IMG/VR virus record: IMGVR_UViG_3300017821_000056
Span: 1 to 64,000 of that record
Strand: one strand, 5' to 3'
DNA: 64,000 nucleotides
DNA from: a virus
Lineage: Duplodnaviria; Caudoviricetes
Positions 39,024 to 62,545 of the stretch are shown here, in pieces. Under the pieces are notes generated by a model. That model saw only the letters and a program-made list of their open reading frames with translations, was not told the origin of the DNA and did no database searches. Numbering within the stretch: the first letter of the stretch is position 1; each line of letters starts with the position of its first letter. The position numbers and the translations under genes are program-made.

Positions 39024-40823
39024 GTGGCCGGCGAGATCCAGTTCCCCGACGGCTACGAGAACTGGCCCCCCGAGATCCGCAAGCGGTGGCTCGAGGACTA
39101 CCACGCCCTGTACTTCCCCAAGCTCCGCTGGTGGGACAAGCCCGAAAGCGACGACGAGGACACCAGCGGCCCCCGCCCGAAACAGCTCCCCCCCGATCAC
39201 CCCCGCCACGGAGACCCGGACATGCGGGGCTACCGGTGCGGGTGCGTCCACAAGCTCCCGAACTGCCCTGACTGTCCCCCATGCCCCGGTAACCCGGACT
39301 GGTCAATCTGGCTCCAGCTCACGGCCCGGGGGACAGGGAAAACCAAGGCCGGAAGCAACTGGGTGCTCGAGATGGCCCTGTCCAAGCCCGGACTGTACGT
39401 CGGGCTGTGCGCCCCCACCCACGACGACATCCGCTCCATATGCATCGAGGGGGATAGCGGAATCCTCGCCGAGGCGCGCAGGAACGGCATCGATATCCCC
39501 GAGAAGTCGTACAACAAGAACCGGCAGGAGATCGAGCTTTCCAACGGGTCGAAGATCCGCGGGTTCTCCGCCGAGAAACCCGAATCGATCCGCGGCGAGA
39601 ACCTGAGTTACGTCTGGTTCGACGAGCTGGCGATGATCCGGTACTTCAGCTTCTACCATGAGGGCTTGCAGCCGGCGATGCGCAAGGGCGACAACCCCCG
39701 GCTGATGATCACTACCACCCCGAAACGGGTCCGGCTGATCCGCGACCTGATCGACGAGGCGAAGTTCGAGTTCGCCGGGGAAGACGGCGGCCCTGGGACC
39801 GGGGTCCACCTGACCGAGGCGATCACGGCGGAGAACATCCACTTCTCCCGTAAGCAGCGGGAACGGCTGGAACGCAAGTACGCCGGGAACCCGGTCATGC
39901 TCGCCCAGGAACTCCGCGGCGAGATGCTCGCCGAAGTCGACGGGACCCTGTTCCCGATCGGCCAGTTCAACGAGACCCGCGTGTTCCCCGGTGATGCGCT
40001 GCCGAAGTGGCGGCAGGTTGTGGTGGCGATCGACCCGGCCACCACCAGCCGGGATTCCAGCGACGAGACCGGGATCGTGGTCGCGACCGAGGGGGAGGAC
40101 GGGGAGTTCTACTGCCTGGAGGACTGCTCCGGGAAGTTCCCCCCCGACCAGCAGATGCGCGTCGTCGCCGAGGCGTTCCACCGCCACGACGCCGACTGCG
40201 TGGTCGGCGAAGTGAACATGACCGGCGACTACATGCGGTCCCTGCTGAACACCGTGGACCCGAACATCCCGCTCCGGTCCGTCCACGGGATGCGCGGCAA
40301 GGTGTCCCGCGCGCAAGGCCCGTCGTCGCTTTTCATGCAGGGCCGGATCCACATGGTCGGGGATCACTTCGCCAAGCTTGAGGACCAGCTCTCCGCGATG
40401 GCCGAGGGTGATGACCGGTCGAGGATGAAGGACGACCGGGCCGACGCTTTCGTCTGGGCGATGATCCACCTGTCCGGCGCAGGGCAGGGTGACTGGGGCA
40501 TGGTCTACGGGTTTGATGACTGCGGGTCCTGCGGTGCCAGGGTGAACGTCGACAAGGACGAGCGGTGCCGCAACTGCGGTGCCCCGGTAGCCAAGTTCGC
40601 CCCCAAGCACCCCGGCGGCTCAAAGGCCCGGGAACCCTGGTCGGCTGCCTACCTGAACACGTGCCCGAAGTGCGAGAAAACCTACCCGAGGCATGAGCGG
40701 ACCTGCCCCCATTGCAGCCTGAGCCCTGAGAGTTACATGCGCAGGGCGCTGGCGATCAGCGGGGGGAACGCCGGAGGGCTGGGGTACTCAGGGAAAGACA
40801 TCCTGCGGGGGCGGCGGTTCTGA
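39024..40823 (+). CDS. terminase large subunit with C-terminal zinc ribbons
   Basis: TARGTGKT, IRGENLSYVWFDE, ITTTP, VAIDPA...DETG, DDRADA; four CxxC at C-terminus. Confidence 0.93.
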   Translation: MAGEIQFPDGYENWPPEIRKRWLEDYHALYFPKLRWWDKPESDDEDTSGPRPKQLPPDHPRHGDPDMRGYRCGCVHKLPNCPDCPPCPGNPDWSIWLQLTARGTGKTKAGSNWVLEMALSKPGLYVGLCAPTHDDIRSICIEGDSGILAEARRNGIDIPEKSYNKNRQEIELSNGSKIRGFSAEKPESIRGENLSYVWFDELAMIRYFSFYHEGLQPAMRKGDNPRLMITTTPKRVRLIRDLIDEAKFEFAGEDGGPGTGVHLTEAITAENIHFSRKQRERLERKYAGNPVMLAQELRGEMLAEVDGTLFPIGQFNETRVFPGDALPKWRQVVVAIDPATTSRDSSDETGIVVATEGEDGEFYCLEDCSGKFPPDQQMRVVAEAFHRHDADCVVGEVNMTGDYMRSLLNTVDPNIPLRSVHGMRGKVSRAQGPSSLFMQGRIHMVGDHFAKLEDQLSAMAEGDDRSRMKDDRADAFVWAMIHLSGAGQGDWGMVYGFDDCGSCGARVNVDKDERCRNCGAPVAKFAPKHPGGSKAREPWSAAYLNTCPKCEKTYPRHERTCPHCSLSPESYMRRALAISGGNAGGLGYSGKDILRGRRF

Positions 40824-49423: not shown

Positions 49424-49638
49424 GGCTCAGCCAGAACAAAGGATGTTCCTTCCGCCGTCATCCCGGCCGGGATCTCCAGCACGTCCATCACCAGACGTGA
49501 CCCTGAAGGCGCCTGCGCCACGATGCCGCCCTCGTCGGCGAATCTCAGGACTAGGCCAGCCGGGTTAAGCGCCCGGTACTCGCGCACAGACCCGTCAGCA
49601 TGCTCAGCGCGGATCACCACGCGCGTTATGACGCTCAT
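49420..49638 (-). CDS. hypothetical protein
   Basis: RVVIRAEHADGSVREY; CACGAT 6 nt upstream. Confidence 0.55.
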   Translation of the reverse strand: MSVITRVVIRAEHADGSVREYRALNPAGLVLRFADEGGIVAQAPSGSRLVMDVLEIPAGMTAEGTSFVLAEP

Positions 49639-49701
49639 TTCCTCATCGTGGCACGCCTGAGCGGCGGTCACCTGTCACGAATCCCCAGAGATCGGAGCCG
49701 T

Positions 49702-52700
49702 GTGGCCGCAACTCTCACCGATGAACTGACCAGGGTCTCGGTCGCGGACATCGAGAAATGGGAGGAAGCGGACGGCACCGTCTACGTCTACGGCCGCTGC
49801 ACGACACCCGAGATCGACACCGATGACCAGCGGGTTTCCGCCGAGTGGAGCGGGCCGGCGCTCAAGGAGTGGATGGCCACCGCCCCGACAGTCCGCGTAC
49901 AGCACAACCCGCAGCGTGACCCGGCCGGCTCCGGGGTCAAGGTCGACGTCAACCGCGACGGCGACGGCGCCCACTGGCTGAAGGCCGCCGTGGACGAGCC
50001 GGTCGCCCAGCGTCTGGTGAAGAAGGGCCACCTGCGGGCGTTCAGCGTCGGCATCGCCCGCCCCGTCATCGAACGGGACGTCACCGGGAAGGCGCGCGGC
50101 GGGATCATCAGCGGCGGCAAGATCGTCGAGGTCTCCCTGGTGGATTCCCCGGCGAACCGGTCGTGCTTCCTGGAGATCGCCAAGTCCGCTGCGGACGGCA
50201 CCTGCGAGTTCACCGGCAAGGTCTATGGCGACGATGAGGTTATCCGGAAGGCCATCGGCGGGGACCTGCTCGCCAAGGCCGTCGCCCCCGCAAGCCTGGA
50301 CACGTGGTCGCCCCCCGCAGACCTGAGCATCACCTTTACCCCGGCGGACATGGCGAAGCTGTTCCAGGGCAAGATCATCGAGCAGCACTACGACGACCTC
50401 GCCCTCAAGGCGGTCATCGAGGCCGAGGCGGCCGTCTACAAGCGGGACATCGACACCGCGACCCGCCGCCGGCTCAGGGCTGAGGGGAACGCGCTCCCGA
50501 ACCTGTCCTACCCGATCGAGAACGCCGGGGACCTGGACAACGCCGCCCGCCTGGCGCGTTCGGGTCACGGTGACGTCGCGGCTGCGCGCCGCCTTATCGC
50601 CCGCAGGGCAAGGGAGCTGGGTGTGGCCAATCCGCTCGATGAGGGCGATGCCGAGAAGGCCATCAGCGAGGAGGAGGCGGTGGCCAAGGCCCTGACGGCG
50701 CTGGACGCCTTCGCCGGGGCCGGCAGCAAGGAAGAAGCGGTAGCCGCCCTGGAGGCTGTCGCTGCGGCGGTGAAGGAAGCCGAGCCTGAGATCACCAAGG
50801 ACCCGGAGCCCGAGGCCAAGGACAAGCCCAAGCCTGTCAAGAAGGCGAAGAAGAAGCCGAAGAAGCTGCCCCCGTGGCTGAACAAGCCCAAGGACGGCGA
50901 CGGCGACGGCGACTCGGATGACGACGGGGCGTGCAAGCAGGACCACGCCCACACGGAGAAGTGCCACACCACCCCGGCTGAGGCTGCCGGGGTCTCCGGC
51001 TCCCACCCGATGCAGGCCGCCCCCGTCCCCGAGCTCCAGGAGACCCCGCCGGTCGCGGCGATGAAAGCCGGCCCCACCCCCGCCTCCGCCGGCCACGTCT
51101 CCGACGCCGCCCCGATGACCCCGGTCGCCGCCCACCGTGAGCCCGACGGCGCCCTCAACGACCCGATGGAGGCCGATGCGGGCCTGTCCGACGGCGACTC
51201 CGAGAAGCCGACCAGGCTGGAAGCGCCGATGATGAAGGGCCAGCCTGAGGTGTCCGCGATGCTGCGGTTCAAGGCCGCCGGCATCGACCCGGACCTGGGC
51301 CGCCTCCACGACCTGACCTGCCCCGCCTACCACCCGGACGAGGTGGCCAAGTACCACCCGTTCGCGGACTTCACGACGCTGATCGACGAGCGGGCGTGGA
51401 TGCGCAAGGCCCTCGCCGCCGCCTGCGGGCCGGCGGAGGAAGCCAAGGCGATGGCGCAGATGTGGAACTCGGTGACCATCCTGCGCGCGGCTGACCCGGC
51501 GATGCTGAACGACTTCCGCCTGCAGGCGCATAAGGCGTTCCGCGACGCGAACCCGGGCCCGTCCACGTACCCGGCGCCGGGGTCCATGTCGCCGCAGCGG
51601 TATAACCGGCCGCTGGTGACCGACGGGCATGAGGCCAGTTCCCCCGGCCACTCCGGACCCGGCACCTCCCCGGAAGTGGCAGGTTCCGCACCGAACGCGC
51701 ACTCGTTCGACCGGCCCCCGCTCGCCGCGGGCCACCAGTCACCGTCCCCGTCCCACATGAAGCAGGGCGGCGGCGAATACCCCGCCATGCAAGGCCAGCC
51801 CGTCCAGCTGTCCTACGCCCACATGGAGAAGGACCAGGCCCGCATGGCGCTGGTCCGGGTCCACGACCAGCTCGGCCGCCAGTTCCCCGAAGTCTGCCCC
51901 CTCGACACGCCCACGTCCCGGCCGCTGCGCGCCCAGCAGCCCGAGGGCCACCCGGTCCCGGCCATCGCGGGCATCGGGAAGACCGCCGCGATCCTGCCTG
52001 TGCCCGTGGATGAGCCCGCCCCCGTCGCCGTCGTCAAGGCCCAGCCTGAGTCGGACGGCCAGTTCATGGACGCCGACGTCTACAAGGGCTTCAAGAAGAT
52101 GCGCAAGAAGCTCGGCAAGAAGGTCCTGTCCGGGAAGATGACCGTGGATGAGGCCCGCTCCAGGATGGGCCGCCAGTTCGCCCAGAAGGGCGCGGAGCCG
52201 CAGGAGCCGGTGCAGAAGGGCTTCCTGCCCAGGCCGCGCGAGGGCTGGACCGGGTTCGAGGGGGGCACTGACCCGAACGGCGTCCCGCGGGTCCCGGTGG
52301 ACAGCCCGCTCCTGACCCCCGACCTGATCAAGGCCGCTGTCGCCGAAGCCCTCCGCGCGGAGTCCGTCCCGCTGGAGCCCGCCACGGTCGCGTCCTTCGA
52401 CCCGTCACCCGCCATCGAGGCTGCGGTGACCAAGGCCACCTCGGAACTGAAGGACCTGCTCGTCAAGCAGCAGGCCACCTTCGAGACCAAGCTTGCTGAG
52501 CAGCAGAAGGTGATCGACGCCATCGCTGACCAGCCCGACCCGTCCACGGCCGCTTTCAGCGGCCTGGCATTCCGTCCCGCCATGACCAAGGCGGCACGCC
52601 CGGCGGGCGTGACCGAGATAGCCGAGAGCCATGCGGCGCAGGCCCGGCTCCTGGTCCGGCAGGAACTCGAGAACACCTACTACAACCACAGCACCCCGGC

Positions 52701-52764
52701 TGTCCGCGAAGCGGCGGCACAGGCCATCGCGCGGCTGGGCAGCGGGAGGCAGGACATGACTTAG
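49702..52764 (+). CDS. prohead protease fused to a long scaffold region
   Basis: VYG...DTDDQ, VRVQH, AFSVG, EVSLVDSPAN; inserted SYPIENAGDLDNA domain; C-terminal coiled coil. Confidence 0.85.
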   Translation: MAATLTDELTRVSVADIEKWEEADGTVYVYGRCTTPEIDTDDQRVSAEWSGPALKEWMATAPTVRVQHNPQRDPAGSGVKVDVNRDGDGAHWLKAAVDEPVAQRLVKKGHLRAFSVGIARPVIERDVTGKARGGIISGGKIVEVSLVDSPANRSCFLEIAKSAADGTCEFTGKVYGDDEVIRKAIGGDLLAKAVAPASLDTWSPPADLSITFTPADMAKLFQGKIIEQHYDDLALKAVIEAEAAVYKRDIDTATRRRLRAEGNALPNLSYPIENAGDLDNAARLARSGHGDVAAARRLIARRARELGVANPLDEGDAEKAISEEEAVAKALTALDAFAGAGSKEEAVAALEAVAAAVKEAEPEITKDPEPEAKDKPKPVKKAKKKPKKLPPWLNKPKDGDGDGDSDDDGACKQDHAHTEKCHTTPAEAAGVSGSHPMQAAPVPELQETPPVAAMKAGPTPASAGHVSDAAPMTPVAAHREPDGALNDPMEADAGLSDGDSEKPTRLEAPMMKGQPEVSAMLRFKAAGIDPDLGRLHDLTCPAYHPDEVAKYHPFADFTTLIDERAWMRKALAAACGPAEEAKAMAQMWNSVTILRAADPAMLNDFRLQAHKAFRDANPGPSTYPAPGSMSPQRYNRPLVTDGHEASSPGHSGPGTSPEVAGSAPNAHSFDRPPLAAGHQSPSPSHMKQGGGEYPAMQGQPVQLSYAHMEKDQARMALVRVHDQLGRQFPEVCPLDTPTSRPLRAQQPEGHPVPAIAGIGKTAAILPVPVDEPAPVAVVKAQPESDGQFMDADVYKGFKKMRKKLGKKVLSGKMTVDEARSRMGRQFAQKGAEPQEPVQKGFLPRPREGWTGFEGGTDPNGVPRVPVDSPLLTPDLIKAAVAEALRAESVPLEPATVASFDPSPAIEAAVTKATSELKDLLVKQQATFETKLAEQQKVIDAIADQPDPSTAAFSGLAFRPAMTKAARPAGVTEIAESHAAQARLLVRQELENTYYNHSTPAVREAAAQAIARLGSGRQDMT

Positions 52765-52776
52765 TTAGGAGAACGT

Positions 52777-54690
52777 GTGGCAGCAATCCTCAGCGATGAG
52801 GAAGTCGCCGCCCCCGCGATGGGAGCGGGAGGGGCACCCAGGGTCAGCCAGATCGAGCCGTCCGGCCGGAACCTGGCAGAGAAGGCCGCCGGCGTTGCCG
52901 CCGGCCTGGTCAAGGGCGCCGGGCAGGTCCGCGGCAAGCGCGGCGCGACCGGCTACAACCTGGACGAAACCCAGCACGGCGCTGAGATCTTCACCAAGGC
53001 CCACGACACCATCACCCTCGGCAAGGCGGCTGCGATCGCCGGCTGGAACGACGGTGATGGCGTCGCGGATACTTTCAACCGGGACTTCGCGTCCCACCGG
53101 GAGTTCATCGCCCGGACCGGCGGCGTGTCGCGTCTGAAGCAGGACGCGATGGTCCGCAAGGCGTTCACCGCCACCAACCAGGGCCTCGCGGGCGTCCCGT
53201 ACGGCCTGGTCCCGTTCGACCTGCTCGCCCCGAGCAGGCTGATCTACCCGGTTTACACGTTGTTCCGCAACAAGTTCCCCCGCCCGGCCGGGCAGGGTGC
53301 CAGCCGCCAGGTCTACGGCCTGCTCGGCATCTCCGGCTCCCAGACCGGCGGCCAGGGCGTCATCGACATCTCCATCCCCGAGCTCGTCAAGACGTCCAGC
53401 AACACCATCAGCGGCTCGTCCGCGAACTGGCCGATCAACCTCCCTCAGACTGGCTCCCAGACCGAGTACAAGCTCAACGTGCCCTACCGGTTCTTCGGCC
53501 TCACTGAATCCCTTTCCTGGCTGGCCCAGTTCGAGGGTCAGGGCTTCGAGGACATCTCGGCCCTGGCAAACCTCGTGCTGCTCCAGGAGATGATGCTGGG
53601 CGAGGAATACCAGATGATCGCGGGTTCCTCGCAGAACCTGCCGGCCCCCGCAGCCCCGACCCTGACCCTGCGCACCGCGGGCTCCAACGAGACGGCGCTG
53701 GGCACCACGACCGGTTCCACCTACGTGAAGATCACCGCCCTGAACTACTTCGGGGAGACCACGGCGAGCGCCTCCGCGAACGTGGCGAACGCGGCGTCCT
53801 CGGTGATCGACGTGACGTGGGCCGGAGTTCCCGGAGCGCAGCAGTACAACATCTACGTCGGGTCCGCGAGCACCGCCAACCAGCAGTACATCCATGCGGG
53901 CACGACAGTCCAGTCCGGTGTGGCCTACGCCGGGAAGCAGACCGCCAACGCGGTCGGCGGGGTCAAGTTCACCATCCAGGGAGCCCAGGCCACCTCCGCG
54001 CAGCAGGCGTACCCGACCGCAGACACCGGGACGGGCGGGAACAACCGGATGGAAGGCCTCATCCCCACCCTGTCGGGCCTGTCCTCAACGGGTTCCGGGC
54101 CGTACGCGAACGTCGGCTTCGAGTCGTCGGGCGTCTGGCAGGGCGGCTACATCAACCAGTCCGTCGGCACCCACCTGTCAACCAACGCCATCTTCACGGC
54201 GCTCGACGCGCTGTGGGAGAACAACGGGCTGAACAACGTCACGCCGGGCGTGTACAAGGCGGACCCGTCCGAGATCGTCGCCGACGGCGGCGACCTGATG
54301 CGGCTCGCCAACGACATGCTCACCCAGGGGGCAGGCCTCAACTATCTGCTCAACATCCAGCAGAACGAGATCTCCGGCATCAGGGCGGGCGCCGCAGTCG
54401 CGGAGTTCGTCAACCCGGTCACCAGGAGCACCGTGAAGCTCACGGTGCATCCCTGGATGAGCCAGGGCACCGCGCTGCTCATGAGCTACCAGCTGCCTCA
54501 AACCTGGTCGCACGTGGACAACGCCTGGGAGATGACCTGCGTCCAGGACTACGTGAGCGTCGCGTGGCCCGTCATCGACGCCAGCTTCAGGTACAGCATC
54601 TTCCTCCTCGGGACCCTGGTGGCTCACGCCCCGTTCTACTCGGGCATCCTCCAGGGACTCCAGGTCTCCGACGTCACGCCTTACTCGTGA
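52777..54690 (+). CDS. major capsid protein with Ser/Thr-rich beta insertion
   Basis: Follows protease; GLVPFDLLAPSRLIYPVYTLFRNKFPR, MLGEE, VHPWM, GILQGL; RBS AGGAG. Confidence 0.8.
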   Translation: MAAILSDEEVAAPAMGAGGAPRVSQIEPSGRNLAEKAAGVAAGLVKGAGQVRGKRGATGYNLDETQHGAEIFTKAHDTITLGKAAAIAGWNDGDGVADTFNRDFASHREFIARTGGVSRLKQDAMVRKAFTATNQGLAGVPYGLVPFDLLAPSRLIYPVYTLFRNKFPRPAGQGASRQVYGLLGISGSQTGGQGVIDISIPELVKTSSNTISGSSANWPINLPQTGSQTEYKLNVPYRFFGLTESLSWLAQFEGQGFEDISALANLVLLQEMMLGEEYQMIAGSSQNLPAPAAPTLTLRTAGSNETALGTTTGSTYVKITALNYFGETTASASANVANAASSVIDVTWAGVPGAQQYNIYVGSASTANQQYIHAGTTVQSGVAYAGKQTANAVGGVKFTIQGAQATSAQQAYPTADTGTGGNNRMEGLIPTLSGLSSTGSGPYANVGFESSGVWQGGYINQSVGTHLSTNAIFTALDALWENNGLNNVTPGVYKADPSEIVADGGDLMRLANDMLTQGAGLNYLLNIQQNEISGIRAGAAVAEFVNPVTRSTVKLTVHPWMSQGTALLMSYQLPQTWSHVDNAWEMTCVQDYVSVAWPVIDASFRYSIFLLGTLVAHAPFYSGILQGLQVSDVTPYS

Positions 54691-54772: not shown

Positions 54773-55201
54773 CTACCTGCACCTGCATCCGGGCTTGACG
54801 TGGACCATCGAACCGCTAGGCGTCTTGTAGCAGCGAGAGGACGGCTGGATCCGGTTGCGGAACGGCGTCCACGGCTCGGGCTTGTGCCTCGGCGCGCTGT
54901 CTATCCGGTCACCGAGTACCAAGTCCCACGTCCGCCGCGTGGCGCCGATGCCCTGGCCGCACTCGCCGCAGGTTTCCTCTTCCTCGCCTGCCGTCCAGAT
55001 GGTGCCGCAGTCCGGGCAGGTCCACGACTCGCCAGTGGCCAGTTCCGGGCGCTTGGTGCAGCGGTGCCGGGTGACTACCTCGTCGCAGGTCTTGCAGCCG
55101 GTCAGGTTTCCCGGCCACAGCCGGTAACTCTTGGCCCGGCCGCATTCCTCGCAGAAGTACCCGGCGGCGAGGTCGCCGAGGAAGATGCCGTGCTCGCTCA
55201 C
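54773..55201 (-). CDS. multi-CxxC protein
   Basis: CEEC, CKTC, CPDC, CGEC. Confidence 0.6.
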   Translation of the reverse strand: MSEHGIFLGDLAAGYFCEECGRAKSYRLWPGNLTGCKTCDEVVTRHRCTKRPELATGESWTCPDCGTIWTAGEEEETCGECGQGIGATRRTWDLVLGDRIDSAPRHKPEPWTPFRNRIQPSSRCYKTPSGSMVHVKPGCRCR

Positions 55202-55494
55202 CAGCGGTACTCCTCATCCGGCGGGGCCGGCACTTCCGCTACGGCCTTCTTGATCGCCATGATGTGCTCGCGGAGCAGCGCCGCCTCAGCCTCGGCTTTC
55301 CCTGCGCGGACAAGGGCAGCTTCCAGCTTCGCGGTCAGTTCGGTGTCGGCCCTGGCCTTCCTCGCTGCCTCGACCTCGCGGATGACGTTGCCGGGCAGGC
55401 CGCAGGACGGGCAGGCCGCCCGGACCCCTTCCATCGCGTCGTAGACGCCCGACAGCCATGCCTTGCAGGCCGGGCACTCGGCTTTCATGCTCAT
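55198..55494 (-). CDS. zinc-ribbon/coiled-coil protein
   Basis: CPAC...CPSC; CATCAT 6 nt upstream. Confidence 0.6.
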   Translation of the reverse strand: MSMKAECPACKAWLSGVYDAMEGVRAACPSCGLPGNVIREVEAARKARADTELTAKLEAALVRAGKAEAEAALLREHIMAIKKAVAEVPAPPDEEYRW

Positions 55495-55526
55495 GCCCCG
55501 ATGATGCCACCAGGAAGGCGGACGCC

Positions 55527-55721
55527 ATGCCAGCCACGGCAACCGTAGAGGTCAGGGTCGCGGATGCCAAGCCTGTCGCGGCGCTGCTCGATGCCGTGGC
55601 GCAGGCCGTAGCCGAGTTCGTCAAGCTCGGCAGCGAGGAGAAAGCGGCGCTCCCGGAACCCGCGCGGGCCGGGATCGGCATCCTGCTTGCTGCTGCCAGG
55701 GACTTCACCCCTCACAACTGA
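55527..55721 (+). CDS. hypothetical protein
   Basis: RBS AGGAAGG. Confidence 0.5.
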   Translation: MPATATVEVRVADAKPVAALLDAVAQAVAEFVKLGSEEKAALPEPARAGIGILLAAARDFTPHN

Positions 55722-55784: not shown

Positions 55785-56123
55785 GTGGCTCTTGCAACCG
55801 GCTCCCTCACGACCACCGCCGTCGCCGCTGGCGGCACCGCCGCCATCTACACCGTCTCGACCACCGTGTACTCCCGTGACCTGGTGATCATGAACCAGTC
55901 CACGGCCGCGTCGAACTCGACCGCGTTCACAATGTTCATCGGCACCGGGGCGAGCTCGGTGTCGACGGGCACCGGCCTCCCGGTGCCGCCCGGCGGGCAG
56001 GTCACCATCCAGGGGCAGTGCGGCGGCGGCGCATTCGGCTCCAGCAACAACATCATCTACGCCTCCGCCGCGTCGGCGGTCACCGCCGTCGTCGGCCTCG
56101 GCTCCGTCGTCTCGGTCATCTAG
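55785..56123 (+). CDS. probable virion (head decoration) protein
   Basis: Ser/Thr/Ala/Gly-rich, beta-strand pattern; after capsid gene. Confidence 0.55.
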   Translation: MALATGSLTTTAVAAGGTAAIYTVSTTVYSRDLVIMNQSTAASNSTAFTMFIGTGASSVSTGTGLPVPPGGQVTIQGQCGGGAFGSSNNIIYASAASAVTAVVGLGSVVSVI

Positions 56124-56153
56124 CGGTCCCTACGCGACCAGGAAGGGGGCCCT

Positions 56154-56693
56154 GTGCCTTCGGTCAACACGACGCCGCTGCCGTCGCAGGTTTTCGTGGC
56201 GAACACCACCGCCGGGGTGACCTCGGTGGTGAACCTGCAGAACCAGGGGCCGCAGACCATGTTCGTCGGCCTGGCGGCGTGCACCCCGAACACGGGGCTG
56301 CCGCTCGGGCCCGGGGAGCGGATCCGGCTGAACAACGTCACCAAGTCGCTGTACGCCTGCTCCAACTGGGTGGCGGGCACCGCGGCGGCCACCCTGTCGA
56401 CGTCGGCGTCGGCGACGGTGGGCACCACGTCGTTCACCGTGGCGGCCGGGGGGATGCCGAACATCCCCGTCGGCACCTATTTCACGATCGGCGCGGGGAC
56501 CGGGCAGGAGGTCCTGAATGTGGCCACGTCGGCGTCGACGACGACGATCACGACGACGACCGGGTGCCTGTTCGAGCATTACGCCTCGGAGGTGCTGAAC
56601 TCGGTGACGTGGACGCCGGCGCCGCTGAACGTGCAGCGGGGCACGTCGCTGCCGGCGCAGATCGGCGGGGCCCTGGCCCCGTCAGGGCAGTAA
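56154..56693 (+). CDS. probable virion protein
   Basis: Thr-rich; LQNQG...GLPLGPG pattern similar to the preceding gene. Confidence 0.55.
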   Translation: MPSVNTTPLPSQVFVANTTAGVTSVVNLQNQGPQTMFVGLAACTPNTGLPLGPGERIRLNNVTKSLYACSNWVAGTAAATLSTSASATVGTTSFTVAAGGMPNIPVGTYFTIGAGTGQEVLNVATSASTTTITTTTGCLFEHYASEVLNSVTWTPAPLNVQRGTSLPAQIGGALAPSGQ

Positions 56694-56735
56694 GGGACGG
56701 GCGCGCGCTCGAGGGCGCTCCGGGGAAAGGGTGAA

Positions 56736-57719
56736 TTGACCGCAACGCTGATCACCGGCGGCGCCGGGTTCCTCGGCGCCGCCGTGGCCCGCCGCCTCGC
56801 CGCGGAAGGCCGCGAAGTCACGGTCCTGGACGACATGTCCCGGGGCCGGCCGGGACGCCTCGCGGGAACCGGGTGCCGGGTCGCGTACGGGGACGTGCGG
56901 GACGCCGGCGCGGTCCGGCGGGCCATGCAAGGCTGCGGGCGGGTCGTCCACATGGCCGCGGTGAACGGCACCGCCACGTTCTACGCCGAGCCGCGGCACG
57001 TCCTGGACGTGGCCCTGAACGGCATCCTGAACGTCCTGGACGCCTGCGAGCGGACCGGGTGCGGGGACCTGCTGCTCGTGTCGTCCTCCGAGGTGTACCA
57101 GTCCCCCCCGGTCGTCCCGGCGCCGGAGACGGTGCCGCTGTCGGTGCCGGACCCGCTGAACCCCCGGTACTCCTACGGCGGCGGGAAGATCGCCTCCGAG
57201 CTCGCCGCGCTGGCATGGCAGCGGACCGGGGTCCTGGACCGGCTGGTCATCGCCCGCGTGCACAACGCCTACGGCCCGGACGCCGGCTGGAAGCACGTCA
57301 TCCCCGAGCTGGCCGCCCGGATGGCCCGGCTGGCCGTAGAGCATCCGTCCGGGCCGGTGCCGTTCCCCGTCCAGGGGAGCGGGGAGGAGACCCGCGCGTT
57401 CTGCCACGTCAGCGACTGCACTGCCGCGTTCATGCTGCTGCTCGGCGAGGGCACGCCGGGCGGCATCTACAACGTCGGCAGCGACGAGGAAGTGACGATC
57501 GCGCATCTCGCCGCCCTGATCGGGGGGCACTACGGCCGTGAGGTGAAGATCATCCCGGGGGTGCTGGCGAAGGGTTCCCCGCCGCGGCGGTGCCCGGACA
57601 TCTCGAAACTGCGGGCCCTCGGCTACGAGCCGGGGATCCCGCTGGCGCAGGGCCTCGGCCCGGTCCTGGACTGGTACCGGGATCACCCGCAGCCCGGGAC
57701 GCGGGACCGTGCCGCCTAG
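56736..57719 (+). CDS. NAD-dependent nucleotide-sugar epimerase/dehydratase
   Basis: ITGGAGFLG, SSSEVY, YGGGK (YxxxK), HNAYGP, TRAFCHVSD. Confidence 0.92.
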   Translation: MTATLITGGAGFLGAAVARRLAAEGREVTVLDDMSRGRPGRLAGTGCRVAYGDVRDAGAVRRAMQGCGRVVHMAAVNGTATFYAEPRHVLDVALNGILNVLDACERTGCGDLLLVSSSEVYQSPPVVPAPETVPLSVPDPLNPRYSYGGGKIASELAALAWQRTGVLDRLVIARVHNAYGPDAGWKHVIPELAARMARLAVEHPSGPVPFPVQGSGEETRAFCHVSDCTAAFMLLLGEGTPGGIYNVGSDEEVTIAHLAALIGGHYGREVKIIPGVLAKGSPPRRCPDISKLRALGYEPGIPLAQGLGPVLDWYRDHPQPGTRDRAA

Positions 57720-58485
57720 CCGGATCCTGGTCACCGGGGCCAGCCGCGGCGGCATCGGCGGGGCGATCTGCCGCAGGCTCGCCGCCGATGCGGTCACCCG
57801 CCACGGCGCCGCGGCGATCACGGTCACGGCGTCACGCGGCGGCCCGGACCTGAAGCTCCTCGCCGCGGAACTGGAAGACTCCGGCGCGTCGGTGCTCACC
57901 GTGGCCGGGGACCTGTCGGACCCGGATTTCCCCGCTGATCTGGTGACGGAAGCCGCCCGGCACGGGGGAGGCCTGGACGCGGTGGTCAGCAACGCGGGCC
58001 GGTCCCAGCACGGCCCGCTCGCCGGCCTGCGCCCTGCGGAGTGGGATCACGCACTGGCCGTCCACGCCCGCGCCGCATGGCTGCTCGCCAGGGCCGCGTT
58101 CGGCCACCTGGAGGAGTCCCGCGGGTCGTTCACCGCCACCGGCTCAGTGTCCGGGACCGTCCCGCATGCCGGCCGGGGCGCGTATGCGGTGGCGAAAGCC
58201 GCGCTGATCGCCCTCTGCCAGCAGCTCGCCCTCGAATGGGCACCCTCGGGGGTGCGGGTGAACGTGGTCTCCCCGGGGCTGGTCAGCACCCTGGCGAAAC
58301 CGAAGCCGTACGCGGCGGGGATCGTCCCGGCGGGACGCGCCGGGCTGCCGGAGGACATCGCCGCGGCGGTCGCGTTCCTGGCATCCCCGGAAGCCTCCTA
58401 CATCACCGGGCAGAACCTGGTCATCGACGGCGGCCTCGCAGCGGCGGGCCTCGGGGCCGCCCTGGAAAGCGGCCGGCGTGGCTGA
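57709..58485 (+). CDS. classical SDR oxidoreductase
   Basis: VTGASRGGIG, SNAG, YAVAK, VNVVSPG, YITGQNLVIDGG. Confidence 0.9.
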   Translation: MPPSRILVTGASRGGIGGAICRRLAADAVTRHGAAAITVTASRGGPDLKLLAAELEDSGASVLTVAGDLSDPDFPADLVTEAARHGGGLDAVVSNAGRSQHGPLAGLRPAEWDHALAVHARAAWLLARAAFGHLEESRGSFTATGSVSGTVPHAGRGAYAVAKAALIALCQQLALEWAPSGVRVNVVSPGLVSTLAKPKPYAAGIVPAGRAGLPEDIAAAVAFLASPEASYITGQNLVIDGGLAAAGLGAALESGRRG

Positions 58486-59605
58486 GGCCGCCGGGGTAAC
58501 CCGGTGCGGGTCATGCGGGGATAGCCGGCTGAGCCCGGTCCTGGACCTGGGCGTGCAGCCGCTGGCCGAGCGGGACAGCGGGGAACGGTACCCGCTGCGG
58601 CTGATCCAGTGCGCGAACTGCACCCTCGTGCAGCTGTCGCACATCCCGGATCAGCGGGAAGTGTTCCCCCCGGACCACCCGTACACCACCGGGACCACGC
58701 GGGCGATGCGGGAGCACTTCGCCGCGCTCGCCGCCAGGCTGAACAGCAGCCTCAAGTTCGGTGATCTCATCGTGGACATCGGCGCCAACGACGGGACACT
58801 GCTGGCCGCCTGCGGTGAGAAAGCCCGGTGCGTGGCGGTCGAGCCCACTGACCAGGCCGCCAAATGCCGGGCCCAGGGTTTCCGTACCTGGCAGCAGTTT
58901 TTCACCGCCAGCACTGCCCGCGACATCCTGCACGTCTGCGGCCCCGCGAAGGTCATCACTGCCTGCAACGTGTTCGCCCATGTCCCGGACCCTCACGACT
59001 TCCTGGAGGGCGTCCTGGCCCTGCTGGGGGATGACGGCACCCTGATCATCGAGACGCACGACTGGGCAAGCCTCGCCAACGGGCTCCAGGTCGACACCGT
59101 GTACCACGAGCACGCCCGTTTCTACTCTGTTGCCAGCCTGTCTTACCTGCTGGCCCGGCATGGCCTACTGGTGCGGGAGGCCGTGCCGATCCCGGTCCAT
59201 GGCGGCTCGTTCCGGGCGTTCGCCGTCCGCGAGCAGCAGCACCTGCAGGCCCGCGCGGCGAAGGCAGCCGACCACCTGTACGCCCTCATCCGTCACGCCG
59301 CAGCCGAAGGACCCGTCTACGGCATCGGCGCAACCACCAGGGCAACACCGCTGATCCACTACGCGGGCATCAAGGCGCACATCGCCTGCGTCTGCGAGGT
59401 CCCCGGCAGCGAGAAGACCGGGCAGAACATCCCCGGCACCTCGATCCCCGTCGTGGACGAGGCGAAGCTGATCGCAGACCAGCCGCCGCACGCGCTGCTG
59501 CTGTCCTGGCACCTGGCGGACAGCATCGTCCCCTCGCTGCGGGCCAAGGGCTACCAGGGCCGTTTCATCGTGCCGCTGCCGGAGGCGAGGTTCCTGGATG
59601 CCTGA
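58478..59605 (+). CDS. NDP-hexose C-methyltransferase
   Basis: CGSC..LDLGVQPLA..YPL..CANCTLVQL; DIGANDG; NVFAHVPD; YHEH; HGGSFR; FIVPLP. Confidence 0.9.
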   Translation: MAEAAGVTRCGSCGDSRLSPVLDLGVQPLAERDSGERYPLRLIQCANCTLVQLSHIPDQREVFPPDHPYTTGTTRAMREHFAALAARLNSSLKFGDLIVDIGANDGTLLAACGEKARCVAVEPTDQAAKCRAQGFRTWQQFFTASTARDILHVCGPAKVITACNVFAHVPDPHDFLEGVLALLGDDGTLIIETHDWASLANGLQVDTVYHEHARFYSVASLSYLLARHGLLVREAVPIPVHGGSFRAFAVREQQHLQARAAKAADHLYALIRHAAAEGPVYGIGATTRATPLIHYAGIKAHIACVCEVPGSEKTGQNIPGTSIPVVDEAKLIADQPPHALLLSWHLADSIVPSLRAKGYQGRFIVPLPEARFLDA

Positions 59606-59951
59606 CCGATTCGAGGACGCTAGGGGCCATATTCAGGACCTCCTGGGGCCCGTCGATGCCGTGACGGAGATCTACACGCGCCAGGGTTCGGTGCGCGGGA
59701 ACCACGTTCACATGGCCACGACGCAGTACACCTACGTCGCCTGGGGCGAGCTGCTGGCCGCCTGGACCGAGGACGACGGGCCGCACGAGAAGGCCTACGG
59801 CCCCGGCTCGCTGATCACCGAGCCGGCCGGCGTCCCCCACGCATGGAAGGCGCTCAAGGACACCCTCGTCCTCGTCTTCACCAGGGGACCGAGATCCGGC
59901 GATGCCTACGAATCCGACACTCACCGGCTCGAGGTGCCGATCCTGCGATGA
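59598..59951 (+). CDS. cupin (sugar epimerase/ketoisomerase-like)
   Basis: FEDARG, RGNHVH, PAGVPHAW. Confidence 0.8.
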   Translation: MPDRFEDARGHIQDLLGPVDAVTEIYTRQGSVRGNHVHMATTQYTYVAWGELLAAWTEDDGPHEKAYGPGSLITEPAGVPHAWKALKDTLVLVFTRGPRSGDAYESDTHRLEVPILR

Positions 59952-61225
59952 CCGACCTGTGCGTCTTCCTCCCCACCCGCAACCGCCCCGCGAAAGCCCG
60001 GGAGTGCATCACCTCGTTCCGGGAAACCGTCAAAGGCGACGCGGACCTGATCCTCATACTCGACGACGACGACGGCTCATACGCTGACGGCTTCGAGGAC
60101 GTCGACAAGATCACCGTCACCCGGGGCACCCTCGTCACGGCCATAAACTCGGCCGCAGCGGTCCTCGCGGGCACCTATGACGCGCTGATGCTCGCCTCAG
60201 ACGACCTGGTGTTCGTCACCCCCGGGTGGGATGAGATCCTGCTGGCGAAACTCGCAGCGATGGGCGGCACGGGGATCATCGGGTGGGATTCGCGGCGCCG
60301 CTACGACCTGCTCGAGCACGTCCTCATGTCCAGCGGCATCGTCAAAGCGCTCGGCTATTTCGCGCTGCCGTGCTGCGGTCACTTTTACGTCGACAACGCC
60401 TGGACGGAGCTCGGGAAGCGGGCCGGCCTGCTCGGCTACTGCCCTGATGTCCTCATCGAGCACAGGCACTACTCGGTGACGCCCGGGGTGGAGCATGACG
60501 CGACGTACCGGGAGGCGGAGAAGAAGCACGGGGCCGCCGACCTTGCCGCGTTCCAGCAGTGGCGGGCGGAGCAGATAGCCAACGAGGTGTCAGTGCTGCG
60601 GAGGAAGTTCTCGCCTGATGTCCGCTGGGTATTGAGCCGCGTCTTATCCCGCCTGCCAGTCCTCCTCCCGGTAGCCGGGCCGGTGCTTGTAGCCGCTGGC
60701 GAGCAGGCGGACAGTGCGGCAGATGCCGTACCCGTTGACGCCGCCCCGGCTGGCGTAATGGCAGGTGACGCACCCGTTGACGCCGCCCCGGCTGGCGTAA
60801 TGGCAGGTGACGCACCCGCAGTCCTTCGGCGGGAACGGGGGGCTGATGATGCTGTACTGCTCGTACAGCGGATTCCGGTCACTGTCGGTCAGGATGTAGT
60901 GCTCGTCCAGGATGGCCAGTTCCGCCTCGCACCGGGCAATGGTGTCCTGCGGGTCGTTCAGGGCCATGTGCTGCCCGTTTGCCACCTGCCGGTGCCGGGT
61001 CCACGCCACGGTCACGCCTACGAGGTCGACTATGCCGTCGTGGACGGAGTAAAGCTCGTCGTCGGCCGGGTCGTCTCCCTCGAACTCCCACGGGCCGGGC
61101 GTAGCCGCCTGCGCTGCCGCCTTGCGCGCCTCGATCTGCGCCCGCAGCCACGCAACAGGCCCTTCTTCCTCGCTGCTCATAGCCCGTCATGCTCTCATAC
61201 GGAAAGGGGCAGCACATGGCTCTGA
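59948..61225 (+). CDS. GT-A fold (family 2-like) glycosyltransferase; real domain ends near 60645
   Basis: LPTRNRP, LDDDD, ASDD, HFYVD; tail is antisense to the DUF6221-like gene. Confidence 0.8.
   Translation: MTDLCVFLPTRNRPAKARECITSFRETVKGDADLILILDDDDGSYADGFEDVDKITVTRGTLVTAINSAAAVLAGTYDALMLASDDLVFVTPGWDEILLAKLAAMGGTGIIGWDSRRRYDLLEHVLMSSGIVKALGYFALPCCGHFYVDNAWTELGKRAGLLGYCPDVLIEHRHYSVTPGVEHDATYREAEKKHGAADLAAFQQWRAEQIANEVSVLRRKFSPDVRWVLSRVLSRLPVLLPVAGPVLVAAGEQADSAADAVPVDAAPAGVMAGDAPVDAAPAGVMAGDAPAVLRRERGADDAVLLVQRIPVTVGQDVVLVQDGQFRLAPGNGVLRVVQGHVLPVCHLPVPGPRHGHAYEVDYAVVDGVKLVVGRVVSLELPRAGRSRLRCRLARLDLRPQPRNRPFFLAAHSPSCSHTERGSTWL
60644..61180 (-). CDS. DUF6221-like protein
   Basis: AWLRAQIE...ATPGPW...DPQDTIARCEAELAIL...CRTVRLLASGYKHRPGYREEDW. 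Confidence 0.8.
   Translation of the reverse strand: MSSEEEGPVAWLRAQIEARKAAAQAATPGPWEFEGDDPADDELYSVHDGIVDLVGVTVAWTRHRQVANGQHMALNDPQDTIARCEAELAILDEHYILTDSDRNPLYEQYSIISPPFPPKDCGCVTCHYASRGGVNGCVTCHYASRGGVNGYGICRTVRLLASGYKHRPGYREEDWQAG
60730..60818. repeat. 42-bp perfect tandem duplication
   Basis: ACCCGTTGACGCCGCCCCGGCTGGCGTAATGGCAGGTGACGC x2. Confidence 0.9.
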
Positions 61226-61491
61226 ATATGGGACAGGCGGCCATAGCCGGCACGGCGATCGCGTTCATCGTCCCTCCCGGCGCCTGCTCTGTCACCGTCT
61301 GGTCCGGTGCCGCCACCACCATCTACCTGGGGACGAACAAGGCCGGCCTCACCGCGTCCAACGGGTACGCCGTGAGCACCTACCCGACGGCTTTCGCCGC
61401 GTACGGCTCCAGTGCCGGAGCGACCGTGTACGGGCTGAACACCGCAGCGACGACCCTGGCCGTCAACTACATCGTGTCTTCGGAGGCGTAG
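61216..61491 (+). CDS. probable small virion protein
   Basis: Ala/Thr-rich beta pattern like 55785-56123. Confidence 0.5.
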   Translation: MALNMGQAAIAGTAIAFIVPPGACSVTVWSGAATTIYLGTNKAGLTASNGYAVSTYPTAFAAYGSSAGATVYGLNTAATTLAVNYIVSSEA

Positions 61492-61873: not shown

Positions 61874-62545
61874 GTGAGTCCCATAACGCTCTACGCACGC
61901 GGTGATCTCCTCGCCGTCAGTGCCGTCCCCGGCTGCGAAGCGGGCCACGTGCGCCCCGTAGACGAGCGCACCGGCAAGCCCGTCCCCGTCTGGAGCCTGA
62001 CCTGCGACGCCCACGAGAAGTACTACAGGGGCGACGGGAAGCCGAAGATCCTCAAGTACCAGGTCGACAAGAACACGGGCCGGGTCCTGCGCCAGGAGCG
62101 CGTGGCGGACTCCTCGCCGATGTTCTCCAGCACCCCGGACACCGTGCCGCTCACCCCGGATGAGGAGGCCACGAATGCGATCCGCCAGGAGCGGGGCCGG
62201 ATGCAGATCGAGATGCTCCAGGCTCTCGCGGCGCTCCGCGCGACCGGCATCGAGGTGCCCCCGGAGGCGATGTGGCTGCTGGAGCGGGAGCTTCCCGAGA
62301 AGGTGCTCAAGGGCACCGTGGTGTGCGTCAACGGGCATGACGTCCCGGCGGGGAACCAGTTCTGCGGTTCCTGCGGGGCCTCCATGACCACGCGGGCCGC
62401 AGTGACGGCCGCGCCCGCGCCTGAGCCTGAGATCGACCTGGCCGTCCTGCACCCGCAGAGCCTGAAGAAGCTCCTCCGCGACCGGGGCCTTCCCGACAAG
62501 GGCACCAAGGAGCAGATGATCCGGCGTCTCCGCGAAGCCGCCTAG
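61874..62545 (+). CDS. protein with zinc ribbon and C-terminal SAP-like motif
   Basis: CVNGH...FCGSCG; SLKKLLRDRGLPDKGTKEQMIRRL. Confidence 0.7.
   Translation: MSPITLYARGDLLAVSAVPGCEAGHVRPVDERTGKPVPVWSLTCDAHEKYYRGDGKPKILKYQVDKNTGRVLRQERVADSSPMFSSTPDTVPLTPDEEATNAIRQERGRMQIEMLQALAALRATGIEVPPEAMWLLERELPEKVLKGTVVCVNGHDVPAGNQFCGSCGASMTTRAAVTAAPAPEPEIDLAVLHPQSLKKLLRDRGLPDKGTKEQMIRRLREAA

Follow-up and report, generated by a model that had tools for sequence, protein, structure and literature searches.

The window analyzed here, a 64,000-nt stretch, belongs to the 128-kb complete genome of an uncultured soil phage whose host is a high-GC actinomycete. Five genes, all on one strand, form an island at 56736–60646 and encode, 5′ to 3′, an extended SDR, a classical SDR, a C-methyltransferase, a cupin, and a GT-A transferase. 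Successive genes overlap by 11, 8, 8, and 4 nt and are therefore translationally coupled. Domain calls with Pfam, PHROGs, and NCBIfam bear out the original prediction, made from the sequence alone, of five co-oriented, overlapping genes of these families. Terminase, portal, and probable capsid genes lie upstream, and a placement of the island among the late genes is supported.

Enzymes of the Island

The extended SDR (56736–57719, plus strand; PF01370, E 1e-40) has human UXS1 (1e-32) and then DesIV (2e-27) as its closest solved relatives. Its GxxGxxG motif, Asp32, S116-S-S-E119, Y147-GGG-K151, and N177 are at least 95% conserved in 41 phage sequences. Residues of the Asp32 type are typical of NAD+ binders, and the enzyme probably binds NAD+. 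The S-S-E and YGGGK motifs are as in UXS (T-S-E) and unlike RmlB (T-D-E); S-S-E instead of T-D-E, together with UXS1 as the best solved match, speaks against a dTDP-glucose 4,6-dehydratase. The protein resembles a UDP-glucuronate decarboxylase and is a probable maker of a 4-keto sugar nucleotide, although the S-S-E motif is also compatible with GDP-mannose-dehydratase-like chemistry, which counts against the UDP-glucuronate route. The classical SDR (57709–58485, plus strand; adh_short_C2, E 2e-47) carries TGxxxGxG, NAG, Ser, and YxxxK motifs, with Ser-Arg following strand β2, and is probably an NADPH-dependent ketoreductase accessory to the cassette. It is absent from every IMG/VR locus fetched; homologues at 61–72% identity occur on metagenome contigs of the same lengths as contigs with C-methyltransferase matches.

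The third gene (58478–59605, plus strand; Methyltransf_13, _23, and _14) encodes a SAM-dependent NDP-sugar C-methyltransferase with an N-terminal four-Cys zinc domain and has KijD1 (9e-46), TcaB9, and MtmC as solved relatives. Across 19 homologues, C45/C48, H168, and Y209-x-E211-H212 never vary, and conservation of C10/C13 and Y69 is 90% or higher. The presence of both zinc cysteines and catalytic residues agrees with the predicted zinc-containing NDP-hexose C-methyltransferase and places the enzyme in the TylC3/TcaB9/KijD1 family. Like the C-3 methyltransferases TylC3, TcaB9, KijD1, and MtmC (PDB 3NDI, 5T64, 4RV9), the phage enzyme has a three-domain architecture, a four-Cys zinc site, a SAM motif, and the catalytic residues, and all of these enzymes require a 4-keto sugar nucleotide; it is ∼25–30% identical to them and falls in an essentially phage-only clade. 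The 117-aa cupin (59598–59951, plus strand) shares DxRG, RGNHxH, Q43, H81, and Y104 as invariant residues with its aligned relatives, 21 of 22 members matching PF14667 (CapF-type cupin) and 10 of 22 matching FdtA. Its profile matches WxcM-like proteins, RmlC, and Cap5F weakly and oxalate decarboxylase cupins best. It is probably an epimerase or keto-isomerase acting on a 4-keto sugar nucleotide.

The last gene starts at the ATG at 59948 and encodes a soluble GT-A glycosyltransferase of ∼232 aa with a DDDD motif (59948–60646, plus strand; phrog_14945, E 1e-27; weak match to PF00535), belonging to ESM Atlas clusters that are 85–92% viral. A 460-aa open reading frame at 59843–61225 was rejected as the transferase gene; the GC3 coding signal is limited to 59948–∼60646, and beyond this point the frame runs antisense to a genuine DUF6221 gene inserted on the opposite strand (60644–61180, minus strand; PF19730, E 2e-19; GC3 0.89). 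At 60644–60646 the transferase has TTA where its orthologues carry a stop codon, and this TTA is the complement of the TAA stop of the DUF6221 gene. Aligned orthologues from six group-A kin loci end there or one residue later; in one relative (L177) with the same DUF6221 insertion, the transferase continues for 17 codons. Because there is no stop codon at the natural end, the transferase product in this phage is uncertain.

Two absences noted in the original prediction hold up. None of the five island proteins has a hydrophobic N-terminus that would indicate an evident signal peptide, and no flippase is encoded, every predicted protein of the 128-kb genome having at most three TM-like segments.

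The Probable Capsid Gene and Ser/Thr-Rich Flanks

The probable major capsid protein (637 aa; 52777–54690, plus strand; phrog_13692, E 2e-48) matches, by tblastn, the major head protein of Alicyclobacillus phage MMB025 across 80% of its length. It carries a Ser/Thr-rich surface insertion at about residues 285–410, with windows of 0.30–0.37 Ser+Thr, which an alignment shows to be retained yet variable among kin. The island had been placed just after a capsid gene. A probable capsid gene does lie upstream, but two minus-strand Cys-rich genes and a small plus-strand ORF intervene. The two Cys-rich genes (54773–55542, minus strand), called from GC3 and their sequences, are small and zinc-ribbon-like; L002 carries a homologue of the first at 59% identity, and a Pfam search with that first gene gave no match.

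Against a genome baseline of 0.118 (sd 0.047) for the Ser/Thr fraction of 163 predicted proteins, the two top-ranked proteins adjoin the island upstream, consistent with the Ser/Thr-rich flanks described originally. The first is a 112-aa all-beta protein (55785–56123, plus strand; 0.277, the highest in the genome), which has homologues at the equivalent position in kin, aligns with the p100 family, and gave no match in Pfam or PHROG searches. The second is a 179-aa protein (56154–56693, plus strand; 0.251) that is kept immediately upstream of the sugar slot in kin and has a poor AlphaFold model (pLDDT 49.5). Downstream lies a 100-aa Ser/Thr-rich protein (61189–61491, plus strand), modeled as a small eight-stranded jelly roll (pLDDT 84.7) and kept 3′ of the transferase in kin. 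Its model resembles many small uncharacterized phage proteins (TM 0.62–0.77) and gives generic jelly-roll matches in the PDB, with Z up to 7.9. We note that AlphaFold models and structure searches yielded no head-protein identity for the flanking proteins, which counts against a virion role.

Distribution of the Cassette and the Variable Slot

A synteny survey of phage genomes, a check suggested with the original prediction, showed that the core SDR, C-methyltransferase, and cupin genes keep this order in ∼50 contigs of uncultured viruses, spread over at least three phage backbones and always accompanied by transferases. On two of the backbones the cassette lies within the head-to-tail gene block and is followed by one to four transferases; this phage and ∼40 others have it in the virion block. 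In three contigs the core genes instead adjoin a clamp loader and a radical SAM gene, which counts against a virion function.

Close kin, defined by capsid proteins of 66% identity or more, differ in what lies in the slot bounded by the 179-aa protein and the transferase. Eight of their loci carry this cassette there; the others carry further SDRs, a DegT aminotransferase, an acyltransferase, methyltransferases, GT17, an RGP-type mutase, or a dehydrogenase. The slot is therefore a hypervariable sugar island. Kin that lack the C-methyl genes still have the transferase, so it may not be specific for a branched sugar. Transferase genes adjoin Ser/Thr-rich proteins of the virion region at two to three places in the genome.

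Proposed Pathway and Acceptor

Most likely, the operon converts a sugar nucleotide of the host to a rare methyl-branched sugar, which is then transferred, probably to the phage particle. In the route we propose, the substrate, the methylated carbon, the order of steps, and the acceptor are inferred. A host sugar nucleotide, most likely UDP-glucuronate, would be taken, since the phage has no sugar-activating enzyme; the extended SDR would oxidize and decarboxylate it to a 4-keto sugar nucleotide; the TcaB9/TylC3-type methyltransferase would move the methyl group of SAM to a carbon adjoining the keto group; the cupin would epimerize or isomerize a neighboring center; and the classical SDR, probably with NADPH, would reduce the keto group to give a C-methyl-branched sugar nucleotide. 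The soluble GT-A enzyme, or another phage transferase, would then act late in infection, transferring sugar within the cytoplasm; the likeliest acceptors are Ser/Thr-rich virion proteins encoded next to transferase genes. Neither this genome nor any of 16 further virus records with this C-methyltransferase clade showed a sugar nucleotidyltransferase, so donors would be drawn from host sugar nucleotides, and, with no flippase found, transfer would be cytoplasmic. The claim that the phage makes its own C-methyl-branched sugar thus reads as a tailoring pathway ending in a soluble transferase, not as synthesis from scratch.

Several observations weigh on this route. The phage has no dehydrogenase of its own, and the dehydrogenase-like gene of ten cassette-bearing contigs is truncated, both of which count against the route; in its favor, a relative (L166) has a full dehydrogenase beside an SDR, and the nearest bacterial locus, described below, has a full-length UDP-sugar dehydrogenase directly upstream of its SDR. 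Most relatives lack a second reductase, which bears on the final step there and counts against the pathway as drawn. The methyltransferase family is the one linked originally to mycarose, but the entry enzyme resembles UDP-glucuronate decarboxylase and departs from the dTDP-hexose route to that sugar. In contrast to actinomycete deoxysugar pathways, there is no dTDP-glucose 4,6-dehydratase motif, and neither a 2,3-dehydratase nor a nucleotidyltransferase turned up. Given a partner SDR of UDP-glucuronate decarboxylase type, a UDP-4-keto-pentose may be the substrate; as the original prediction had cautioned, the genes do not allow the exact sugar to be deduced.

Genomic context points to virion glycosylation as the best-supported target, within which position makes the capsid a candidate. 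In mycobacteriophages such as Che8 and its relatives, capsid and tail-tube subunits are glycosylated by phage transferases (Freeman et al. 2023, Cell Host Microbe 31:1216, as relayed in PMC12619734, PMC11256854, and PMC10877033). As in that system, so far as those accounts describe it, an actinobacterial phage here would use soluble, cytoplasmic glycosyltransferases without a flippase. Unlike there, tblastn found no similarity between the transferases here and Mycobacterium phage genes, transferase genes included, which counts against a virion acceptor, and the island adds a tailoring pathway with a C-methyltransferase, directly after the capsid gene and with contents that vary from one close relative to another; the cluster F1 phage Maravista has its transferases close to the 3′ terminus of its genome (PMC11256854). 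Chloroviruses and Megavirinae, according to the abstracts of PMC5408694, PMC9614988, and PMC10117803, encode sugar pathways and glycosylate capsids or fibrils. There, too, tailoring enzymes and transferases are both virus-encoded, serve the virus's own particle, and yield sugars that vary by clade; unlike this phage, those viruses infect eukaryotes and have unrelated capsids, and the abstracts mention no C-methyl-branched sugar.

Alternatively, the sugar could be destined for a glycopolymer of the host envelope, or for a lipid-linked precursor on the inner side of the membrane, and leave the cell through the host's export system, for example to block superinfection or mask a receptor, a reading we consider improbable. 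The nearest cellular relative of the phage SDR and C-methyltransferase pair, on Gaiellaceae MAG contig DAISLG010000001.1, does sit in a cell-surface polymer locus, where a full-length UDP-sugar dehydrogenase, the SDR (43% identical to that of the phage), the C-methyltransferase (39%), GT4, Wzt, and Wzm follow in order; that locus thus has its own dehydrogenase and Wzm/Wzt exporter, unlike the phage, and no cupin was detected in it, though in both the pair is adjacent with transferases flanking. Soluble transferases are able to act on polyprenyl-linked intermediates, O-antigen-locus-like variation suits a cell-surface antigen too, and one of the records with the cassette is classified as a provirus. 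Set against these, the genome lacks a flippase, a Gtr-type or any other polytopic membrane protein, the island lies in the head-to-tail block on two unrelated backbones, away from lysogeny genes, and tail genes are interleaved with further transferases.

We regard it as very unlikely that the product is a small glycoconjugate or modified metabolite, such as a host or competitor natural product, or that the cassette is a decaying passenger without a phage role. The methyltransferase family is best known through antibiotic sugars and the transferase of this phage has lost its stop codon, but catalytic residues are invariant or nearly so over 19–41 phage sequences per enzyme, the recurrence in ∼50 contigs is always with transferases, and no aglycone pathway lies nearby. 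Also very improbable is glycosylation of phage DNA at hydroxymethylated pyrimidines to evade restriction, DNA modification being an alternative in the original prediction. Phage GT-A enzymes with R...DDD motifs, sometimes with an adjoining epimerase, do hypermodify DNA (Pyle et al., bioRxiv 10.1101/2023.12.21.572611), and three contigs have the clamp loader. Cultured Streptomyces and Arthrobacter phages, moreover, encode ∼30% identical homologues of the transferase within their replication regions, in most cases with a nucleotidyltransferase gene alongside, which also counts against a virion acceptor. But the hypermodifying clusters adjoin either a thymidylate-synthase homologue or 5mYOX paired with a C5-methylase, and in this complete genome we found no thymidylate-synthase-like gene, no Tet/JBP match (in a search that control genomes were unable to validate), and a sole C5-methylase match of 15 bits, under the cut-off, in an ORF without a solved methylase relative, so that, with the cassette in the virion block, DNA glycosylation is unlikely.

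Virion glycosylation accordingly remains our preferred reading, starting from the observed gene set, conserved catalytic residues, the repeated occurrence of the core genes in many phages, the changing content of the slot, and absence of rival-route enzymes. Our best overall explanation, to which we give about an even chance, is that this lineage maintains an exchangeable sugar island a short way 3′ of its capsid gene, that the present cassette is one version of it, and that the branched-sugar pathway of this version would end in cytoplasmic transfer to Ser/Thr-rich virion proteins.

Genes of the sugar cassette and their setting

GC3-based gene calling combined with domain searches bore out the run of five co-oriented, overlapping genes of the original prediction, all on the plus strand: an extended SDR (56736-57719), a classical SDR (57709-58485), a C-methyltransferase (58478-59605), a cupin (59598-59951), and a GT-A transferase beginning at the ATG at 59948, with successive overlaps of 11, 8, 8, and 4 nt. 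The five genes are preceded, across gaps of at most 63 nt, by two all-beta proteins, one of 112 and one of 179 aa. A scan of the island for promoters and terminators found none, and the hairpin ahead of 55785 does not stand out against shuffled sequence (z -0.36), so it is the shared orientation and the short gaps that argue for co-transcription. A small ORF (55458 or 55527 to 55721) also lies upstream of the island genes, and two small Cys-rich, zinc-ribbon-like genes on the minus strand (54773-55542) stand between the capsid gene and the island block; the first of these has a homologue, 59% identical, in the related locus L002.

Downstream of the transferase lie a DUF6221 gene on the minus strand (60644-61180) and p100, a Ser/Thr-rich protein of 100 aa (61189-61491). 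The flanking proteins had been described as Ser/Thr-rich, putative head proteins. The first part of that description holds, as the 112- and 179-aa proteins have the highest Ser/Thr content among the 163 predicted proteins; the head role of p100 stays putative. Its confident model is a small jelly roll of eight strands, and the structural matches (Foldseek, VIA-align; Z up to 7.9) are generic jelly rolls only, among them phage cement proteins, the PM2 spike, and Ena pilins, so that we withhold an identity as a head protein. The AlphaFold model of the 179-aa protein has a pLDDT of 49.5. Farther on, a 223-aa protein (61874-62545) ends in a SAP DNA-binding motif (E 3e-7) and has a weaker zinc-ribbon match under the Pfam cut-off (E 2e-3); it is kept among kin, the contigs with a related capsid protein, within the head-to-tail block, an unusual site for a SAP domain.

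The parent record is complete, with 128,210 bp, direct terminal repeats, and a GC content of ~0.69, and no tRNA genes were found in it. The large terminase (39024-40823, plus strand) is at most 35% identical to that of any cultured phage, and the island itself drew no megablast match among 50,697 phage records, so there is no close cultured phage. On the same strand follow a portal-MuF-NUDIX fusion (43297-47862), a 1054-aa protein (49600-52764), and the probable capsid protein (52777-54690, 637 aa), with matches to phrog_13692 and to the major head protein of Alicyclobacillus phage MMB025. The insertion in the capsid protein (53630-54000, residues ~285-410, ...VTWAGVPGAQQYNIYVG...) reads as an Ig/FN3-like beta domain, and its Ser/Thr/Gly-rich loops differ in length between kin. 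The host is probably an actinomycete, to judge from the richness in GC, the scarcity of TTA (18 in 33,402 codons), the DUF6221 gene, and the kinships of the classical SDR, which has relatives in Rhodococcus and Nocardioides, and of the transferase, which has relatives in Streptomyces and Arthrobacter phages.

Enzymes and the proposed route to a branched sugar

The C-methyltransferase has the TylC3/TcaB9 three-domain set, in agreement with the zinc-containing NDP-sugar C-methyltransferase that had been predicted. The N-terminal four-Cys zinc domain (Methyltransf_13, PF08421, E 1.5e-10) is followed by a class I SAM domain (PF13489, E 3e-15) with a conserved SAM motif and a C-terminal Methyltransf_14 domain (PF08484, E 7e-22), the latter two both aligning to 5T64. 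Matches to the solved enzymes KijD1, TcaB9, and MtmC range from E 1e-44 to 1e-46. Across 19 homologues, the zinc cysteines do not vary at C45/C48 and are at least 90% conserved at C10/C13, and they line up with those of KijD1; likewise invariant are H168 and Y209-H-E211-H212, which align with CHIP and YDEH of KijD1 and which we take to be the catalytic residues (His and Tyr-x-Glu-His), following the TcaB9 literature. The putative site of action is a carbon adjoining the 4-keto group of a sugar nucleotide, and the sequence does not distinguish C3 from C5 as the carbon methylated. The protein matches no PHROG family; its matches among phages are only 24-30% identical and come from huge uncultured phages and one Synechococcus phage, and our literature search found no paper on a phage sugar C-methyltransferase.

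The best solved match of the extended SDR is human UXS1, a UDP-glucuronate decarboxylase (1e-32, 117 bits), followed by dTDP-glucose 4,6-dehydratases, with DesIV at 100 bits; the NCBIfam models all score far under their own cut-offs. In the alignment with hUXS1, S117-S118-E119 stands opposite T118-S119-E120, together with Y147/K151, N177, and an Arg at the R277 position. The protein thus has GxxGxxG, an Asp following strand beta-2 (a usual mark of enzymes that hold NAD+), S-S-E, YGGGK, the Asn, and the Arg, and these UXS-like residues are kept in at least 93% of 41 distinct phage sequences. On these grounds, we read the extended SDR as the creator of the 4-keto group, while GDP-mannose-dehydratase-like chemistry may also be what it performs. 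An RmlB-type dTDP-glucose 4,6-dehydratase is ruled out by the Ser-Ser-Glu motif, found in 98% of the 41 sequences where DesIV and RmlB have Thr-Asp-Glu.

No sugar-1-phosphate nucleotidyltransferase was found in this genome or in 16 other records with this C-methyltransferase clade (4 of the 17 records are at least 90% complete), and for want of one the pathway must begin from a host sugar nucleotide. This phage also encodes no UDP-sugar dehydrogenase. A full-length one lies directly upstream of the SDR and C-methyltransferase in the Gaiellaceae contig L083, the nearest bacterial locus, where a GT4 and a Wzt/Wzm exporter follow, and in the phage relative L166 a full dehydrogenase is paired with an SDR. 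These neighbors, taken with the UXS-like active site of the extended SDR, make UDP-glucuronate the likeliest substrate and UDP-4-keto-pentose the likeliest intermediate, an assignment to which we give roughly even chances. A dehydrogenase-like gene (C16) in ten cassette-bearing contigs was rejected as a true dehydrogenase, since it covers only residues 85-290 of the full enzyme. Genes of this type (~255 aa) follow the cupin in loci L020, L025, L030, L042, L044-L047, L049, and L051; the family is missing the beginning of the NAD domain and has no UDP-binding domain at all, and may be a new reductase derived from the UDP-glucose dehydrogenase fold.

Among 22 members of the cupin family, DxRG, RGNHxH, Gln, His, and Tyr are invariant. 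PF14667, the CapF cupin domain, matches 21 of the 22 and PF05523 (FdtA) 10 of the 22, with E values down to 1e-5, and against solved proteins the family profile matches oxalate decarboxylase at 3e-11, a WxcM-like protein at 1e-3, RmlC at 7e-3, and Cap5F at 0.04. An epimerase or keto-isomerase is likely, if not secure, given how weak the matches to solved sugar epimerases are. In the classical SDR the catalytic set is complete and strand beta-2 is followed by Ser-Arg, features that suggest the use of NADPH and a role as reductase. This enzyme is missing from all of the cassette contigs fetched from IMG/VR. We dropped the idea that it is unique to this phage, given database homologues 61-72% identical; these sit on contigs equal in size to those of the methyltransferase hits, so the four-enzyme form of the cassette probably exists elsewhere. 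In the widespread version, the UXS-like SDR would act first, the TcaB9-type C-methyltransferase would then modify UDP-4-keto-pentose, and the cupin would follow, to give a C-methyl-branched sugar. Substrate, product, and acceptor are all inferred from sequence and context.

Distribution of the cassette and the variable slot

Searching IMG/VR with a methyltransferase profile turned up 134 relatives. Among the best 80 of the 134, which were fetched as loci, ~57 are at least 45% identical, and all but one of these have a GC content of 0.59-0.71. In prokaryotes (one genome for each of 185,579 species, in a search limited to two sequence patterns), the best two matches are 53% identical, on a 6.6-kb MAG contig itself bearing phage gene clusters, and 39% identical, in a Gaiellaceae MAG. 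Surveyed for synteny, as originally suggested, the core order SDR, C-methyltransferase, cupin recurs in ~50 contigs, representing 28-41 distinct sequences (tblastn and clustering), and no cultured phage has the three together. In the lineage of this phage, the cassette stands behind the capsid gene and the genes of the small Ser/Thr-rich proteins. A second, larger group has an unrelated portal, protease, and capsid and carries the cassette between the head-tail connector and later virion genes, with up to four transferases after it. In three contigs the cassette adjoins a radical SAM gene and a clamp loader.

A capsid protein profile retrieved 80 kin contigs. Where the capsid is at least 66% identical, the order capsid, 112-aa protein, 179-aa protein, transferase, p100, and next genes is conserved, and the slot enclosed by the 179-aa protein and the transferase varies in content; the C-methyl cassette occupies it in eight loci. 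In a 135-kb kin phage (L125:12974-19956), the slot holds a different cassette of ten genes, comprising two Methyltransf_24 proteins, a hexapeptide acyltransferase, a DegT aminotransferase, a low-molecular-weight phosphatase, a SIS isomerase, a GT17, an epimerase/dehydratase, an uncharacterized gene, and the transferase, a content that suggests an acetamido-sugar version of the island. Among 82 further slot proteins, from kin with capsids 51-75% identical, the commonest are epimerase/dehydratases, GT2, GT4, GT17, methyltransferases, and aminotransferases, and an RGP-type mutase and a dehydrogenase also occur. One slot protein in alignment A6 matches the plant-type Reversibly Glycosylated Polypeptide family of UDP-arabinopyranose mutases (E 1.5e-40), and two others there match eukaryote-type GT17. 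Some kin slots hold the transferase and one or two uncharacterized genes only. The slot varies in the manner of a locus under diversifying selection, as O-antigen loci do. With the slot genes beside it differing among kin, it does not follow that the conserved transferase is specific for the branched sugar.

The transferase is a small soluble GT-A enzyme with a DDDD motif, and its clusters are 85-92% viral. In the orthologues aligned from six kin loci of group A, the protein closes with W-V/I-L-x-x-V/I or extends one residue beyond it. Where these orthologues stop, this phage has a TTA (60644-60646); from there the reading frame continues on the plus strand for 193 codons and runs antisense across the DUF6221 gene (region 60620-61225). 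The TAA stop of the DUF6221 gene is the complement of this TTA triplet. In the kin locus L177, which has the same DUF6221 insertion, the run-on of the transferase is 17 codons.

Acceptor of the sugar and significance

We lean slightly toward virion proteins as the acceptor. The island lies inside a virion gene block on two unrelated backbones, and further sugar genes are found among the tail genes of this genome: two GT4 transferases (genome positions 71221-72435 and 87072-88505), both co-oriented with the virion genes, a co-oriented Methyltransf_24 gene (88657-89391) whose weak match is of the rhamnosyl O-methyltransferase/CmcI kind, and a GH16 glycoside hydrolase (91956-93050). Ser/Thr-rich proteins of the virion region adjoin transferase genes at two to three sites in the genome. 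A 463-aa Ser/Thr-rich protein (68938-70329) lies a short way upstream of the first GT4. One GT4 has its best cultured match in Microcystis phage Mae-JY09, one small ORF downstream of the capsid gene. In mycobacteriophages, capsid and tail-tube subunits are documented to be glycosylated by enzymes of the phage (Freeman et al. 2023, as cited in PMC12619734, PMC11256854, and PMC10877033). Like the Che8-type mycobacteriophages, this phage encodes soluble glycosyltransferases; their genes are co-oriented with virion genes and may be expressed with them. No homology to the mycobacteriophage enzymes emerged, as tblastn of GT-A and GT4a against the 50,697 phage records (E limits 1e-3 and 1e-5) gave no match in a Mycobacterium phage.

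Against a virion target stands the position of the GT-A homologues of cultured Streptomyces phages, which sit among replication genes. In the cultured phages Jada (L108, 58151-59875) and Annadreamy (L109), of 125-133 kb, the replication module contains a pair of adjoining GT-A genes along with a small nucleotidyltransferase, and one of these GT-A proteins is ~30% identical to that of our phage. The sugar may instead go to the host envelope by way of host exporters. Here the genome speaks against the rival, as none of the predicted proteins exceeds three TM-like segments; the phage therefore encodes no flippase, polymerase, or membrane transferase, which confirms the absence of a flippase in the original prediction and contrasts with Gtr-type serotype conversion, where a GtrA flippase, GtrB, and a polytopic transferase are used. 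Glycosylation of phage DNA via a hydroxymethyl-pyrimidine, named from the outset as an alternative, is unlikely, since the complete genome has no thymidylate-synthase homologue (PF00303), no Tet/JBP (PF12851, in a search run without a positive control), and no credible C5-methylase (PF00145 reaches 15 bits, below its cut-off, in an ORF without a solved relative), the enzymes by which known DNA-glycosylating phages produce their hydroxymethyl handle (bioRxiv 10.1101/2023.12.21.572611).

With virion proteins as the favored acceptor, we propose tentatively, as a joint reading that we regard as possible rather than probable, that a capsid-side locus with O-antigen-like variation gives each lineage of these uncultured soil phages, whose hosts are high in GC, its own virion sugar type, the C-methyl version included, and that the route through a UXS-like SDR, a TcaB9-type methyltransferase, and a cupin is a phage-specific branch of branched-sugar biosynthesis not described before. 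To our knowledge, glycosylated phage particles have been documented for a few mycobacteriophages only, and we know of virus-encoded pathways for particle sugars mainly from giant viruses. The island genes are compact, soluble, and easily expressed, which makes them useful for glycoengineering, and the route, if true, would be a new enzymatic one to branched-chain sugars. The joint reading, if right, would also mean that rare sugars are made by many uncultured soil phages on their own, with the sugar genes passing between near relatives in the way that bacteria trade O-antigen genes, and it would point to selection on how the phage surface appears in soil, for example, through adhesion, stability, or recognition by hosts or predators.
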